Source: Cirrosporium novae-zelandiae (taxonomy: Eukaryota). From it: DNA of 64,000 bases. The notes under the pieces are model-generated. The model saw only the letters and a list, made by a program, of their open reading frames with translations. It was not told the origin of the DNA and made no database searches. The position numbers were made by a program, and so were the translations under genes. Positions 14,769 through 32,690 of this stretch are shown here, one piece after another. How positions within the stretch are numbered: position 1 is the first letter of the stretch; every line of letters begins with the position of its first letter. The stretch covers positions 1,240,001-1,304,000 of the forward strand of contig JAPETS010000002.1 in the NCBI GenBank assembly GCA_026023565.1, in the 5' to 3' direction.

Positions 14769-16672
14769 TTAGATCTTAACCGCACTCTCAATCGCCTTCC
14801 TCTTCTTCTCTTGATGAGCAATAGCCTTAGCTCCCATAATCCCTCCACCCCAATGTCGGCGGGACTCCTCATACTTGTCTGTATACCCTTCCTTGACGGT
14901 AGAAACAAGTTTCGCGAGCTCGGATTTGTCTTCGCCGCGTACTTCGGTGAGGGAGACGACGGCTGCGGTCTTCTTGTGCACGAGGGTGCCTAGGCGCGCT
15001 TTTCCTTTTATGATGGCGTAGGGGACGCCCATTTTTCGGCAGAGGGCGGGGAGGAAGACTACTAGTTCGATGGGGTCGACGTCATTTGCGATTAGCTAGG
15101 AAGGGGGTGGGGTTAGTATTTTGGATGGATGGGTGGGGATTGAGTTGGGAGGTGGGGGTTGAAGGGGGAACGTACAACGAGGGAGGTCTTCTTGTTTTCG
15201 ATTAGGCCGACGACGTGGTTCAAGCCGTATTTAATCTGAGGGGTATATGTTAGTTATGGGCCGGTTCATTTGGTTTGGTTTGACATTTGTCATTTTGGAT
15301 GATGGGGGAGGGTTGTGGGGGGTACTGACAACATATGGCTTCTTGCTAACGTCTTCGGCTTTCTTGCCCTGCATGAAATTATTAGCGTTTGTTTCAACTT
15401 TTTTGGTGGATGATGCGGGAAAAAGAACTACCTCTTGGATAGCTGAGGCTTCCTTGGTCAATCTTTCTTTCTTTTCCGTCTTCGATTCTGGCCTATATTT
15501 GCTGAGGAGCTTGAATGCCTGGGCGGCGGTGTTGCGGTCGAGGACGTGGCCTAATTTCATACAATGTGAACTTGCCGTCCAAAGCAACAGATACAAGGTG
15601 TGTGAATCTTACTGAATTCTGTTTTACGGTTAGCATTCCGTTGGACGACTAGGGTAAAAATGGGAAGACTCACGGGCAATGGCAGGGGGAACCTTCAATC
15701 TCATGTCTACACATATTGGTTAGGATTTCCCGATTGCCGTAGGAGGTAGGCAAAACACACTGAGGATCCTAAAGTAGACGTTTAGTAATTAATTTCTTGT
15801 TGGAAGGGGGAATGGGACACTCACTTTCGCTGGCGTTGGAGGCGGACATATTCTGGCCACTTTACCATACGCTGGATAGGGAAGGAAACGTTAGTTGACC
15901 TCAAAGGGTGAAGGAGGACACGGATGATACACACCGACAAGTTTCGTTTAGGCTGAATATCTTGACCGATTCCAAAGTTTTTGGAACGCTTCTCGGAGAG
16001 GGGGTTCTTTGCCTGCTTCTGCAAAAAGCTCAATCTAGTGTTCTTTGAAGAACATATTGGAGGTCATTGAGAGCTAGCTGTACCTTTGAAGCGCCGGCCT
16101 TGCCTTGAGGAAAGCTACACACCACATAAGCAGATAATCAAATATGATAACCTGCCAGACTTACGGCGCCGCGGCGACTTTTTTTCCACTCTTAGCGGGT
16201 GCCTGCAGTAGACCCAAGACCCGTCAGCAAAATCAATCACTCAATCGGTGTCTTGTTTTAAGAGGTCGTTGCTAATGAGAACAGCGACCGAACGATGATC
16301 GAGGGAAAAGGCTCTTGGCTCTGTAAAACTATCCAATTGTTTAGTAATCAAGTACTTTCATACCAGAGTTAATTAGGAGTGTCATACCTCTTTGAAACCA
16401 ACAGCTAGTATTTTTGAGTCTCAAGCTCTTTCCCCTCGACCATCGAAACGTTCGCATGTCCTCCAGGCGTCTTCTCCATTGCTAACACAGAGACCTTGTT
16501 GCCAAGGCATGCGAGAGCTCCGGTGGGACTCAAGAATACATGATGAATGTTGGAAAGATGGATATGTCGAAAACATTGTGGGAAATGTAGGTTGGACTGA
16601 AGTCGTGCCGTAGGAAATGGATCCTCATGGCGATGACATTGAATGCAAAACGAGGTTCGGCTTGCTTACCAT
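14769..16672 (-). CDS. RPL8: 60S ribosomal protein eL8 (L8/L7a), 12 exons
   Basis: Spliced product [31 protein letters not shown]...[53 protein letters not shown]...[22 protein letters not shown]...RHWGGGIMG. Eleven GT-AG introns; exon 1 codes only ATG (16670-16672). Confidence 0.96.
16264..16540 (-). ncRNA. Structured RNA element inside RPL8 intron 1 (cis-regulatory element or intronic ncRNA, class unknown)
   Basis: 18-bp helix 16428-16445/16293-16310, 13-bp helix 16527-16539/16408-16420, CCUUG-GCAA-CAAGG tetraloop hairpin 16494-16507, hairpin 16264-16289. Confidence 0.6.
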
Positions 16673-16985: not shown

Positions 16986-18275
16986 CTAGGTAACCCCCAA
17001 ATCAACAGCCTCCATCTGTCTTCTCAAAGTTGAGCTCCCCTCCTCATCCTCAACGCTTAGTTCAATAGCCATCTTCGGTCGATTCTTATTAAGACCCTCA
17101 AGAAGCATGCAAGCCTTGCAAATACGTTGACTTGAGAGATAGCCACACTTTTCACATGTCCCCATCCGCTGTTTTTGCACCTTGCGAGATTTCTTTTTGT
17201 CGTGTTTGCCATTGCTGGGATGTATCCTATCATGGCGTTGGCCATTGACGGCCAGGGGTGATATTATTTCCGTCTCTCTCTCCTCGGCGGCTTCATTCTC
17301 TTTCAGGCGCTTCTCCATTTCCACCATTTCGCCTCCGCTGCTTCTTCCGTTTTGAGATCCACAGCCACCTTCTCCTCCTTCCTCGACGGTGGCTGCAGCC
17401 GGTAATCCATTACCATTTCCTGAGCATTGAGACGACCCTGCGACTTCTGAAGGAACTAATTTGGCCATGTCTTCTCCACTCCTGACAACATCCAAGATGG
17501 CGCTTGGTCTCACCCTTTCGAGGTTCTTAATAAGTTGTCTGGCACTGCCTCTAAAGGCCTCTGGACTGTAGATACACTCTGTGCTAAAGTAGTCCAGCCT
17601 TTTATGGTGCGCGTAGAGCACAATCTCCTTCTCGTATGCATACTTCAACGGCTTGCTTCTTTTGATTTCGCTAGCCGTAGATGAGGTAACGATACTTGTT
17701 GCACGCGCCAATCTTGGTAAGTCTCCTCGCAATAGATTCATCAGGACGGTCTCCGCGACGTCATCAGCATTATGTCCTGTCACCACATGCTTGATCCCTA
17801 ATTTTGCCGCCCCGCGATCGAGAGCCTGCCGGCGAAAGACACCGCAGTAGGTACAATTCCCTTTCTTGCCCACCTGCTCAACTACCTGATCCATAGTCCA
17901 GCCATAGAGTTGGTTATAGCCCACGATCTCGAGGGGCATGTTATATTGTAGCGCATTTCTCTTAACAGTCTCTAGACTATCATCCCGGTAGCCTTTGATT
18001 CCCTCGTCTATAGATAACAGAACCAAATCCAAACCGTAGTTGTGACGCTCATTCAATGTTTTCAAGACGGATGCAAGGACGGTAGAATCTTTTCCACCTG
18101 AGGCCCCAATCGCGATGCGCTCGCCGGGGTAAAAGAGATTATTGGTAGTGATTGTGTGATGAATTTCAGTTTCGAATACTTCGATAAAACATGCTTTGCA
18201 TAGTTTCTGCTGGTTCTTGGGCCGTATTATGAGGGCGCGAGAGGTCTTGCAGATGGCACATAGTGTGGGTGGCAT
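16986..18275 (-). CDS. NCS6: Cytoplasmic tRNA 2-thiolation protein 1 (Ncs6/Ctu1)
   Basis: PP-loop [22 protein letters not shown]- and C-terminal CxxC zinc fingers; single exon. Confidence 0.96.
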
Positions 18276-18621
18276 ATTCAAAGCCGGCACAAGATCTAAC
18301 GCAAAAATATGGGGGGGGGGGGAATGGGAATGGAAAAATCAAGACATCCGGGAATTAATATTTGGTTAGATCCAAACTCGACATTAATTACCTATAGATA
18401 TAAGCAGATTAAGAACGTCGGCGTGTGGTGGGGAGAAAAATAATGTTTGCATCTCATCAAGCAAACCCCCCGCTATCGGATCCCTCAGGCATCACAAAAT
18501 TCAAATTCACTCTGTTTGTTCTGTTTGCTTCCCACACTAGCGCCTGGTCCGTGCTTCCCAACTTCTATTTAATCAGCTCCTCCTCCCTTTCTCTTTCTCT
18601 TTTTTTCTTCTTTTCTTCTTT

Positions 18622-18858
18622 AGCTCTGTGAGTATTCACCTCCCTTTACCCCATACTTTTGCTAATAACTATCGCAGCTTTGCCTTTTGGCTTAGATCAA
18701 GTGTAGTATCTGTTCTTTTCAGTTTAATCTCTGAAATGGTTCTAAGGAACCAAACATTGATTAATCTTATTTTTGGCATTGGTGAGAATGGCCTCTGTGC
18801 TTGCGCATGTCTTCTTACACTGTGTCCCTGGTATTACACTACCTCCAGGTGACGCGAA
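18622..18858 (+). ncRNA. U2: U2 spliceosomal snRNA, interrupted by a spliceosomal intron (18628-18677)
   Basis: CTTTGCCTTTTGGCTTAGATCAAGTGTAGTATCTGTTCTTTTCAGTTTAATCTCTGAAA (stem I, branch-pairing GTAGTA, stem IIa), Sm site ATTTTTG near 18769-18775, stem-loop IV CCTGGTATTACACTACCTCCAGG. The exact 5' and 3' ends are approximate. Confidence 0.95.
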
Positions 18859-18965
18859 TTCTATCTTTTCATCATCTACTTCGGCTTGTCTGGAGATTTG
18901 GGGAAGAGGGTTTTTGAGTGACGAGATTTGTGATCAGGATGTGATGAGACGGAAATTCTCGCTTA

Positions 18966-18969
<4 letters not shown>

Positions 18970-18997
<28 letters not shown>

Positions 18998-19014
18998 AGT
19001 GTGAGTGTGTGTGT
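18970..19014. repeat. (GT)n microsatellite
   Basis: Read directly. Confidence 0.9.
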
Positions 19015-19568
19015 CCTTTTTATGGGAGCCGAATTGTTTTAACCTTTACATAGACCCACCTCACTGCTGCTTTGAATCCTTCTCATATTAGCTACTCTCG
19101 ACTTTATTCTAAAAAACAAGAGAATATACGGCCAAGCAAGCAGCCTACTTACCCATGTATGAAAATATCATAGTGAGGAATAGATGATAGAGATAGATGT
19201 CTTTCTTTCGTAAAAATCGTATATAATTCTTTTCAATAAATAATAATAACGAATTATGGATATCTCTCGTAAAGATGCATGCTAATAATATATAGACTAT
19301 ATATATACAGACAAGCAGACTAAAATAATGCTATATCTTATCCTTCTTCGAAGAAAGCCGGATGGATGGATAGCTTTCTTTTCTAAATAACCCGTATACT
19401 GTACTTGTATCTGTATCCCTCTCCGAAAAACGCCATGCCGAAAACTGACCGGAGGTATATCCATTCGTTCCCAACCACAGTCACTTTATCCACGCACACA
19501 CACGCACATGACAATCGGAGTAGCCCTCTTTTTTATCCATCTCCGCCCCCATTAAATTTAAATCAAAA

Positions 19569-24778: not shown

Positions 24779-27700
24779 CTAGCCGAATTCACGATCTATA
24801 TACCGAGAAAGCAACTCAACCTCTTGAATATCAAAATCCTTTGCCCACCCTGGATTACTATTTATCCGTTCTAGATGCTGTTTTAATGACGCACAGCTCT
24901 GCCTGAATTCACGCATTTCATTGCTGCTATCTTGAATCGCGTTTAGCTCCTCGATCTTTTTCTTTCCATATCCTGTCTCCGAACCAGACTCCAAATCTAT
25001 GTTCCAAAGCTCCTCTTGGGGTCTCTTTCCCACTGCCTTTTCCGGAGATTGACTACTTGGCACACCGTCACTACTTAAGCCTGTAACAAATAGAGACCTT
25101 TTATTTGGCCGGTCAATGGCTGAAGCCATGCTGGGACTTCGAGCCCGTTTATCGCGGATCGGAGAGCTAGACCAGTTCAGACTGGACCAGTCCATAATGC
25201 CATAGTCATCTGCAGCCTGGTAGTCTTTCAGGAAACGTTGAGGCTGTTCTCTTTCTAGGTTGGGTCGAGCCATTGAGTCTTCCAATCCAATTATTCCCGC
25301 CTCTAGGAACGGAATGTCATTTAGTTTGTGTGCTTGGACGGTGTTCAGAAGCTCCTCTTCCAGAGGTAAGTCATCCCTCAAGTCGTCCTCGTAGTAATTC
25401 GAAGACCCAAGTATCTTGGCCGGGACCTTCTTGTTAGGTATGCATTCGCTCTGAATTGGAAGATCTGACATCCCTAGGAGCGCGGGGTTGGTGCCGTAAC
25501 TATCCCAAGGGGTGGTAGGGGGGGACTTAGGCCAGCCCTTGAGATTCTTGGACCTTGTTGCTCCAAGGAGAGTGGCGGGAACGGAATCCATCTGCCTGAC
25601 CTCGGATGCGGCCTTGGGGGCCTCAGCCACCACAGTCTCAGGGATGTCGTTCAGCATCTTCTTACAAGTCATAGGCTTCCCTACCTGGTTGTTATCAGAA
25701 AGCCTTTCCCAAAGGCTGTCGAGCCTATTCATGCCTTCACCAGACAAGCCCTCCTCCCTTGGTTCATTAGCCAAACCGACTGTTGCTACTCTCCTAGGAG
25801 CGGGCTTTTGGATCAAAGGAGTCCTCGGTTTTGTTACCTTGCCACCTAAGGAGGTCTTAGGGATTTCTTTGGGTGCTTGCGTATTCGAACTAGCCTTGCG
25901 TGGTTTCGGCTTCTTATTGAGGCCATCTCGGCAACACATGTGTTTACATCTAAGGTGTTGTTAGCATTGACGTTTGGGATATCGTATACATAACTCACGA
26001 AGTTTTATCCTTGCACTTGTGATTACAAGCCCATTTCCCATTTGATAGTTGTGTGTAATCTAACGCATCCTCTTCGCTTTCCTGAGCTGCTGGTTTTGAT
26101 GATAGGTTTTTATTTATTTTTTGGGTATGGGGATTTGTGGCCATAAAGCCTCTGCCTGGAGGTCTATCCTCGAAGTCATCGATTGTTCGAAACTCCATGT
26201 TCTCTATTTTATTAGCTCGATTAATTCCGCTGCCATAATAAGGAGGACTTACCGGCCGCAAGTAAGTCTTGATCATCTAAGTCGCCGAAAAAGTTCTCAC
26301 TCTCCTCAGCAACCAAATCCATTGCTTTGCAAAATCCTTCCCGACTCCGGCGTCGTGATATATTCATTTCAGGTTTTCGTAGACATGCCGAATCGGGCCC
26401 TTTGATTTGACTTTGTTCCTCATTATGTGGAAGGGGAAATATCGATGCAGGAAGCCCGGGCTGTAGCTGTGCGGTTCGATAAGTGCCAGCTATATCATCG
26501 CACATCACTGAGCATGTAATATATTGATGTTCATTCCAAAGGTCCACCGAAAGGAACACGTCCAATGTATTCTGTAGCTTCGTTGCGCTAATGCGACGGA
26601 AATCAATCAAGTGGCCATCGGACAATTCGACTAAAAAGCAGACATATATTGGCCTTTTGCGGAAAACGGTTGGTGTTTCTTCATTCATGAAGCTTATCTC
26701 AGCCTTAACTTTAACCTTCACTTGAATTCCAGGTTTCACATCCTAGGAGAATTAGTGGAAGAGTAAGCCTGAAAGGTTTCTCATTTATACCTTGCCCATT
26801 AACTTAACCCGCACTCTAAGTTTTGGGAAGGCCTTCAACGCCGTTAGGATCCTGGTTCCATACGGAGGATACCTGCTCAAGATCATCTCGATACGACGAG
26901 CTTCTGTACCCTCCAATGTCTCGACACTGTTTATATTGGCGGAAACCAGTCTTCGTACCCCCACATTTCCGATTGTTTCGATTTGTTTTAGCTCCAATGG
27001 TGAATTATCCCAAACACGAGCACCGAGGCTTCTCGAAAACTCTAACGCGTGACGAACCGTAACGGCATCTTGAAGGTGAATTTGGCAGTCGATAATGCAG
27101 CGAACTAACCGATGAATATGTTGGAAAATTATACCTTTATCCTGTAGGTACTGAGTCTTGTGCTTTTTGTATTGTTCCTCGGCGGGGAAGTCAATACCAC
27201 CCAGTTCGGACTGGACAATTAACGAGATTTTATGAGCGGAAAGCGCAATATCAACTTCAATGGGATATTTAATCCCGTTATTTTTGTTCAGAGTCTTGTA
27301 AACTGCTCTCTCCCCGGACTTTAGTCGAACCCCGTGAAACTCATCGGCCTGGGCGAGAACAGAAAGAATCTCTGAAATGGAAGCTTTTCGAGAAAGGGAC
27401 AGCAAGGTTTTCATTGTTTTATACTTGACGTAGTAGCGAGACATCGCATCTCCTAGCTCCGTGCTTTTGATTCGGCCTTGGACGGTGATCAACTTGGTTT
27501 CTTCTAGAAGTTTGATGTCACGTCCACATATCTCTTCAAGTCTCTCGTCTTGGTCTAGGGCCGCTTGAGTATCGCCGTCGAGCTTGTAGTGATCAGGATT
27601 GGTTTTCAGCCTCACAAAAAGAAATGTTCCTGCGAGCCATCTTGTTGCGGAAGGAATGTCGTAGACTGTTCCCAGCCCAATTTCAGCATTCTAAGATATA

Positions 27701-31173: not shown

Positions 31174-32690
31174 TTATTCATCCCGGTGGCTGTCAAAATA
31201 TTCCCTAGCCGAAGAAATCCTCGAATTGTGTCTGGCCGGAGACGCAGGACGAGAGGTTGTTAGAGCATCGGTTTTGAATGGGGTAACCGGGAGTTTGATG
31301 GAAACATCGCCGCTGGACGGAGATGCAGTATCCATGGTTGACTTTTCGAAGTTCTGTATCCGTAACTTCGGGGGCCTTGGGCGATCCTGGCCAGTATAAA
31401 GATATGCTCCGAAAAATGTCACAGACATGCCAAGAATGAACTAGAGCCATATATTAGCAACCCCAAAGACGACTGGGCGAGGGAATATAACTTACAAAGT
31501 TGCTAGGGTCGAAGTTGAAGAGGAAAATGCTGGAAATCAGTGTCATAACTACACTGATAGTAGTTGCAAAATTCTTGGTTACCGTATCTGCGTAACTAAC
31601 GGAAAGCGAAACTAGCAAACCGCCGAAAGCTTGCAAAGAGATACATAGCCAGACTACCCAGTTGTATCCCTCAAAAAAGCCGTTCTTAGCAATGTTCTCG
31701 CCATCAACGAAAACAACTCCGATGAATAGGGCTGGGAAGGCTGAGTAGAGAGACAGTTGGACATTGCGCACCCACAATGATACATTGGTGTTGCTTTCTT
31801 TCATGATCTTCTCGAGGTATACCCCAGCCCAGCCAAGCGCAATGCACCCAACAGTAGCTGCCGCCAGGCCAACGGACGCATTCATGCGAGGATTTTCCAG
31901 CAATTGATCTTCTTGTATACCCTCATATGTGGCGGACCGTTTGACCAGATGCGCCGCCGCATAGGTTCCTAGGTTGCCGAGGTCGCTTAAAGATCGAGGC
32001 ATTCGCAGCTTTGTATCTTCGGTTTTCACCTGAGATGCAAATTGACTTGGAATTTGTACAATAGCTACCCCCGTAACTAAAAGGATGAGAGAAAGCCACT
32101 TTCGAGGCGATAAGCTTCGTCTCAAGACTACTACGCCAAATAGCGCCGTAGTAACTAGCTTTAGCTGATATGTGACCTGGAACGTTGCTGCATCTAGATT
32201 CGAAACCGCGACGTATTGTAGGGAGTTCGAAAGAGTGTATAGGCTTGCTGGAATAGCTAGCTTCCAACTATCACCGGTGAATACCGACCTCATCAGAGCG
32301 CCAAACAGAGATGTTGCAGGCATGGAAGGTGATGCGGTTCTAGAGATGTCATAGAGGGAGAAGGTCAATGCGATAGCCAACTTGATGACTTCATTGAGAA
32401 GTACGGCGGTGGAGGTATAGTAGCGGTGGCCTGCCACCGGAGGCATAGCTCGTGAATAGTGGAGAGACTATGAGAAGCATAAACGTTAGGTCCTGTAGAG
32501 ACAATTGCGATAAATTTGGGGGGTTTTGCATACCAAAACTAGGATTGCATTTTGTAGTGCCAGCTGTATTCCAGGTCAACTCAAGAGTTCGTCTAATAAT
32601 ATTTTCACAAGGCGCGTGTACCATTACCAGGGATATGGGCTTCGCTGGCAGTCCCATACATGACGATCGTTTCTGAGCCGATTTACCCAT
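31174..32690 (-). CDS. UDP-galactose / nucleotide-sugar transporter (SLC35A family)
   Basis: STAVLLNEVIK, LAIPASLYTLSNSLQY, FQVTYQLKL, AGVYLEKIMK, SLWVRNVQL and FFEGYN motifs; three introns. Confidence 0.92.

Follow-up and report, generated by a model that had tools for sequence, protein, structure and literature searches.

Does the U2 snRNA gene found in the window (the whole 64-kb stretch of DNA that was analysed) carry its own 5′ end directly, or are the first nucleotides of U2 encoded as a separate, very short exon, so that the transcript has to be spliced before it becomes U2? The sequence-only reading of this DNA had proposed the latter, with a spliceosomal intron splitting a first exon of a few nucleotides from the U2 body.

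The U2 locus and its neighbourhood

The sole Rfam match in the 64-kb window is U2 (RF00004), which covers 18671-18863 on the plus strand scoring 153.1 bits (gathering score 46; E=1e-31), and is aligned to model positions 1-192. Reading of the sequence over 18400-19100 places the opening of the U2 body, CTTTGCCTTTTGGCTTAGATCAAGTGTAGTA (CTTTGCC...), at 18678. GUAGUA and then the Sm site AUUUUUGG are both present, in the right order, together with stem I and the 3′ stem-loops, and the locus is a bona fide full-length U2. Since the Rfam alignment is continuous over 18678..18863, the U2 body itself contains no further intron. The features of the region are the following.

16986..18275, minus strand: divergent neighbour gene encoding a PP-loop ATPase with a zinc ribbon (PF01171, E=2e-19; PF16503, E=3e-19)
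18537..18542, plus strand: upstream motif CTAGCG, candidate snRNA-gene promoter element
18566..18572, plus strand: TATA-like box (TATTTAA), at a distance of 56 nt from A18622
18577..18621, plus strand: pure pyrimidine (CT) tract of 45 nt, from sequence reading, ending just before +1
18622..18627, plus strand: predicted exon 1, AGCTCT (6 nt), the same six nucleotides that open the 13-mer AGCTCTCTTTGCC of intronless U2 genes
18628..18677, plus strand: predicted mRNA-type intron of 50 nt, from splice signals and comparison with intronless U2 loci
18628-18633, plus strand: putative donor GTGAGT, from sequence reading
18660-18666, plus strand: putative branch motif TGCTAAT (CTAAT at 18662-66), its branch A, 18665, lying 12 nt from the intron 3′ end
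18675-18677, plus strand: putative acceptor CAG, from sequence reading
18678..18863, plus strand: exon 2, the U2 body (Rfam RF00004), 3′ end approximate
18703-08, plus strand: U2 branch-point recognition sequence GTAGTA, from sequence reading and the Rfam match
18769-76, plus strand: U2 Sm site ATTTTTGG, from sequence reading and the Rfam match

The divergent PP-loop ATPase gene and the U2 promoter have an intergenic region of about 350 bp in common; the domain pair PF01171 and PF16503 presumably marks a Ctu1/Ncs6-like tRNA thiolation protein. Downstream of the U2 gene, at a distance of 100 nt, is a microsatellite of the type (TG)n/(TGAG), about 50 nt long (18967-19015).

The predicted exon 1 and 50-nt intron

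A U2 body starting at 18678 and preceded by a donor, a branch site and an acceptor had been put forward from the sequence alone, and every one of these elements was found at its proposed coordinates when the sequence was read again. The frequency of such an arrangement was estimated with a strict intron motif (GTRAGT, 20-50 nt, CTAAY, 5-20 nt, YAG), which was searched on both strands of the window with 50 block shuffles as control. It occurs five times in 64 kb, against a shuffle mean of 1.9 and a maximum of 4. As the motif is this rare, an occurrence positioned exactly between AGCTCT and CTTTGCC is very unlikely to have arisen by chance. The four other occurrences are all on the minus strand and are 49-55 nt long (2520-2568, 15619-15673, 25950-25998 and 31441-31495), those at 15619-15673 and 25950-25998 being placed at the ends of long open reading frames or overlapping these ends. 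They are probably ordinary protein-gene introns, showing the typical intron size of this genome.

U2 5′ ends in metagenome contigs

Metagenome contigs were scanned with a 41-nt U2 core (18682-18722) as query, an exact match being required, and at least 121 loci with at least 124 core matches were obtained; viral contigs scanned with the same core gave no match. All 16 loci that were tested, and then ten of ten more, are U2 by the Rfam threshold. Among the 124 matches listed, 67 are intronless and all 67 begin with the same 13-mer, AGCTCTCTTTGCC. Another 44 of the matches listed begin with a prefix of this 13-mer, followed by GT, an unrelated segment (50-83 nt), AG and the rest of the 13-mer, and deletion of the GT...AG segment leads in all 44 to the exact AGCTCTCTTTGCC. 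The other matches listed comprise eight with variant or, in L030, unassignable 5′ ends and five that are too short to classify. The intron-bearing share is 44 of the 119 classifiable matches listed, a figure that describes an exact-core sample and is no estimate for fungi at large. In L030 and L113 the U2 body is preceded by ...CGCTAAC...TTAAG/GCC, which has the look of a branch site and an acceptor, with no matching exon 1 in the available sequence; an intron that is longer, or that is truncated where the contig stops, may be present there.

The 44 listed matches with 5′-end introns bear out the proposal of the sequence-only reading, as does the join itself. It had held that removal of the intron restores CUCUCUUUGCC, and in the window AGCTCT and CTTTGCC together rebuild exactly the 13-mer that opens all 67 listed intronless matches. 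The division of U2 into a very short exon 1 and a body is strongly backed by the comparison with 67 intronless and 44 intron-bearing listed loci.

When the listed matches and the window are taken together, an exon-1 prefix followed by GT that restores AGCTCTCTTTGCC is present in 45 of the 53 loci without an intronless 5′ end, and in shuffled upstream regions of the same 53 loci the 13-mer was restored in 9 of 10,600 cases. This difference stands against the reading in which an intron is absent, transcription of U2 begins at about 18671, the RNA opens with AUCGCAGCUUUGCC, and GTGAGT, CTAAT, CAG and AGCTCT are coincidental. The 45 introns comprise 39 distinct sequences. All 45 start with GTNNGY and end with AG, of which the GT and the AG were imposed by the search; CTRAY, which was not a search requirement, is found 10-24 nt from the intron 3′ end in 44 of the 45. 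Six other distinct introns among the matches listed occupy the same position as that of the window (L002/L066, L007, L037/L082, L040/L116, L056 and L112). Their sequences are unrelated to that of the window intron, yet all have the form GT...CTRAY...AG. Among the listed loci in general, the intron interiors vary and the splice signals and exon 1 are kept.

Promoter context and transcription start

Of the 59 listed intronless loci that have a TATA motif, 56 have it 37-62 nt before +1, and the distance from the TATA motif to exon 1 is 37-56 nt in 19 listed intron-bearing loci, being 56 nt in the window. The start is set in a context of T at -5, C at -4, three pyrimidines and A at +1, which recurs in 60 intronless and 38 intron-bearing loci, all distinct, among those listed. 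Both the promoter spacing and this context in the window are those of intronless U2 genes. The TATA-like box is 56 nt from A18622 but 105 nt from 18671, which is outside the range of 37-62 nt, and the start is therefore placed at 18622 and not at 18671. Transcription from A18622 is what the promoter layout predicts. A U2 beginning at about 18671 would have no TATA-like element 37-62 nt upstream, the only one being 105 nt away, and the agreement of exon 1 and of its promoter context with the intronless genes would be left unexplained by such a start.

Further upstream, 54 of the 98 distinct U2 loci listed have CTAGCG or TTAGCG, or a reverse complement of these, at a distance of 54-108 nt from +1, compared with 804 of 9,800 shuffles (8%). 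The motif is a candidate snRNA-specific promoter element. It turns up repeatedly ahead of the TATA box in the listed loci (L001-L121) and is often duplicated or palindromic.

The CT tract at 18577-18621 permits another interpretation, which had been raised as a possibility together with the intron itself, namely that a second intron ends at TTTAG (18618-18623), so that CTCT would be a micro-exon of 4 nt and the first exon would lie further upstream. A long pyrimidine tract followed by AG does resemble a 3′ splice site. The same tract and YAG, however, precede the intronless genes as well, 37-62 nt after the TATA box, and the sequence 18573-18627, which lacks GT, offers no donor after the TATA box. 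The micro-exon was abandoned on these grounds, and a second intron is regarded as extremely improbable. Promoters of filamentous fungi are known to carry CT tracts shortly before the start site, and the tract at 18577-18621 is best read as promoter or initiator context and not as part of a 3′ splice site.

The 5′ end assigned by Rfam

In the Rfam alignment of the window, the last seven bases of the intron, ATCGCAG (18671-18677), are taken as positions 1-7 of U2. The 5′ end is placed inside the intron because AUCGC resembles the animal-type consensus (AUagC). This alignment speaks for a U2 gene without an intron: 18671-18863 is matched to positions 1-192, AUCGC being set against the consensus AUagC, the score still reaches 153 bits, and the 5′ end AUCGCAGCUUUGCC is as long as the Rfam consensus AUagCUUCucgGCc. 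The intronless loci give a different picture, since Rfam aligns their UUAGCUcUCUUUGCC to model positions 1-14. Three of them (L062, L047 and L022) have a standard base pair in stem I and score 160-164 bits, versus 153 bits for the unspliced window, in which the basal pair of stem I is non-standard. Splicing would replace the G of the intron by U at this place, turning a G.A mismatch into a U-A pair; without an intron the mismatch in stem I remains.

ATCGC as a true animal-like 5′ end was considered and rejected: it is kept before exon 2 by none of the six other distinct introns listed at the same position, all of which differ in their last seven nucleotides. As ATCGC is missing from them, its likeness to the animal 5′ end is taken to be accidental. 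From the metagenome counts, the promoter spacing and the alignments together, a U2 gene without an intron is very unlikely, and the 50-nt segment 18628-18677 is, with high probability, a genuine intron that must be spliced out to obtain U2. An annotation based on Rfam would consequently put the U2 5′ end at 18671 instead of 18622/18678 and miss exon 1, and the same misplacement is expected in all genomes with such introns.

Function of the intron-bearing copies

An intron may be real in evolutionary terms and still be located in a copy that is silent or poorly spliced, the cell being supplied by another U2 copy. More than one U2 gene is frequent in fungi, and five of the listed metagenome contigs carry two separate copies, which makes such an arrangement conceivable. 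In three of these five contigs, though, both copies have the intron (L021+L039, L032+L033 and L058+L059, among the matches listed), in two both are intronless, and none is mixed. When 30 distinct intron-bearing bodies and the window are aligned, compensatory changes keep the U2 helices in 12 of 35 predicted pairs, that is, intron-bearing lineages preserve the structure of U2. The compensatory changes and the paired intron-bearing copies argue against the intron-bearing copies being dead genes. The window, moreover, has intact promoter elements, intact splice signals and a complete U2 body. A silent copy is on this evidence unlikely, and a functional intron-bearing gene is the preferred reading of the locus.

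Intron positions and their history

Among the listed matches and the window, distinct introns follow U2 nucleotides 5, 6, 7, 9, 10 and 11 in numbers of 2, 7 (including that of the window), 6, 3, 5 and 16, respectively. With six intron positions within nucleotides 5-11, this stretch of U2 has the appearance of an intron hot spot.

The relatedness of the loci was deduced from a tree comparing 85 U2 bodies over their variable part (145 columns), in which many forks are weakly supported; 40 matches were left out of it, being short, lacking an Sm site where expected, having internal introns or having no 5′ class. The 11-, 10- and 9-nt classes each form one group, with support values of 97, 98 and 85, and members of the 6-nt class are scattered over at least three places. 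At a support of 80, the window falls together with the 9-nt class (L064, L073, L015 and L088), to which it has 80-85% identity in the variable part. L097, of the 7-nt class, is grouped with L040/L116 of the 6-nt class (support 99), and L007/L056, also of the 6-nt class, group with the 10-nt clade (support 94). Between close pairs in the tree the intron position differs by 1-4 nt. The window intron and that of L064 have a short stretch in common, TTACCCCA, which is weak evidence.

These patterns would follow either from repeated insertion into a stretch of 7 nt or from one intron that slid. It is a tentative proposal, to which slightly less than even probability is given, that the first 11 nt of U2 are an undescribed intron hot spot across many filamentous fungi, in which every U2 would be spliced there. 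If so, the capped first exons of those lineages would be just 5-11 nt long, and the 5′ end of U2, the strand of helix II, would be marked as accessible to reverse splicing. Alternatively, the cluster would reflect intron sliding between close relatives in steps of 1-4 nt; exon 1 of the window has 6 nt and that of its nearest relatives (L064/L073/L015) has 9 nt. First exons of 5-11 nt are among the shortest known to us.

Several U2 loci show further irregularities. Insertions starting with GT are located inside stem-loop IIa after CAGTTT (L016 and L034), after TTTTCAG (L041 and L078) and after CTCTGA (L043, L049 and L063), and three loci (L051, L061 and L104) apparently have two introns, one at the 5′ end and a second after TTTTCAG. 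Loci with insertions in stem-loop IIa are aligned full-length by Rfam over 238-258 nt, not about 193 nt. The 3′ stem-loop breaks off in L040 (GGTA/AGTTT...) and in L014 (CACT/GTAAGT...CTGAC) at alignment columns of about 165-200, and in both this looks like a further intron near the 3′ end of U2. Short U2-like genes of about 100-140 nt, with 59-66 bits to RF00004, were also observed (L018, 355-453, minus strand; L028, 355-453, minus strand; L070, 263-403, plus strand). Their first 54 nt or so are as in U2 and are followed by a different, GC-rich hairpin; they stand head-to-head with a U2 gene that is full-length in L018 and L028 and cut off in L070. They may represent a variant or truncated U2 paralogue.

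Proposed maturation of the U2 transcript

The locus would be a working U2 gene of a filamentous-ascomycete-like fungus, the transcript of which needs splicing to become U2. RNA polymerase II, directed by the TATA box, the CT tract and the CTAGCG-type element, is expected to start within about 2 nt of A18622, and the capped precursor would consist of AGCUCU, the 50-nt intron and the 186-nt U2 body. A spliceosome containing pre-existing U2 would then remove the intron by means of GUGAGU, UGCUAAU (branch at A18665) and CAG. The predicted product has the conserved 5′ end AGCUCU/CUUUGCC, that is, AGCUCUCUUUGCC..., and would enter the normal Sm-class pathway. Splicing of the window transcript is suggested in this scheme by the arrangement of signals in the DNA. 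A capped first exon of 6 nt is unusually short, and we know of no experimental precedent for the splicing of one.

The 5′ strand of U2 pairs with the 3′ part of U6 (helix II) in yeast, human and other animals. Splicing would restore this strand for U6, and the unspliced RNA would be without it and without the proper pair in stem I; the strand would read AGCUCUC in the spliced form versus AUCGCAGC if there were no intron. On the U6 side, a scan for the U6 core followed by GAGAGCT in genome contigs gave no match. The U6 core alone was found at 17 loci in genome contigs, 15 of them U6-like (L123 and L133 are not), and no 3′ end matching the complement of the fungal U2 5′ end was seen at the 15 U6-like loci.

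The intron may have originated by reverse splicing, by intron sliding or by both. The feedback loop envisaged in the sequence-only reading would amount at most to self-dependence, U2 being needed to make U2, as distinct from demonstrated regulation.

Comparison with known systems

A canonical intronless U2 (RF00004) has the same full-length body as the gene of the window, with GUAGUA, the Sm site and the stem-loops; the difference is that in the window the first six nucleotides are encoded separately. According to the available part of PMC5855946, introns in genes of spliceosomal RNAs are known from U6 of Schizosaccharomyces pombe and many fungi, and from U2, U1 and U5 of Rhodotorula hasegawae (for U2, Takahashi et al. 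1993, Mol Cell Biol 13:5613, as cited there). The same text describes the sole U6 gene of S. pombe as containing an intron and needing splicing, and it summarises the work on fungal U6 introns by Tani and Ohshima 1989 and the survey by Canzler et al. 2016.

Like the window, the U2 gene of R. hasegawae has a spliceosomal GT-AG intron, and the spliceosome processes its own RNA; in the accounts available, the usual explanation is reverse splicing into an snRNA within the spliceosome. The R. hasegawae intron is reportedly internal, near the branch-site recognition region. As far as those accounts go, it is one U2 intron in one species, whereas the intron of the window is situated 6 nt from the 5′ end, after a micro first exon, and is one of a series at six positions found in 44 environmental loci listed. 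The introns of fungal U6 resemble that of the window in having a canonical 5′ splice site, branch site and 3′ splice site in an otherwise unconserved intron and, in the same partial sources, in using several insertion sites, some common to relatives and some lineage-specific. U6, however, is a polymerase III gene with introns near the catalytic core, whereas the U2 of the window would be made by polymerase II, capped and of the Sm class, and introns of its type, unlike those of U6, cluster in the first 11 nt, in the strand of helix II. The U3 snoRNA of fungi (Saccharomyces cerevisiae and Neurospora crassa; PMC5832005, in the part available) is also capped, with a TATA promoter and a spliceosomal intron, and it is likewise a small structured RNA that is independently transcribed; the RNA family differs from U2.

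In the parts available of the literature searched, which included screens of fungal spliceosomal RNAs and genomes, introns at the very 5′ terminus of U2 are nowhere described. The only U2 intron cited there is that of Rhodotorula, and further papers on snRNA introns could bear on the novelty. The intron of the window belongs to the same class as the known snRNA introns, and what is apparently new is its cap-proximal site in the strand of helix II, the first exon of 5-11 nt and its apparent recurrence.

A U2 gene that needs the spliceosome for its own first six nucleotides would be a self-dependent arrangement; to date, fission-yeast U6 and a single U2 gene of a basidiomycete yeast are the documented examples. 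Six adjacent sites in many environmental U2 genes offer a natural data set on intron origin and intron sliding, and they raise the mechanistic question of how a cap and an exon of 5-11 nt are held through both catalytic steps. With such an intron, U2 would take its place beside U3 among the small structured RNAs of fungi that have spliceosomal introns.
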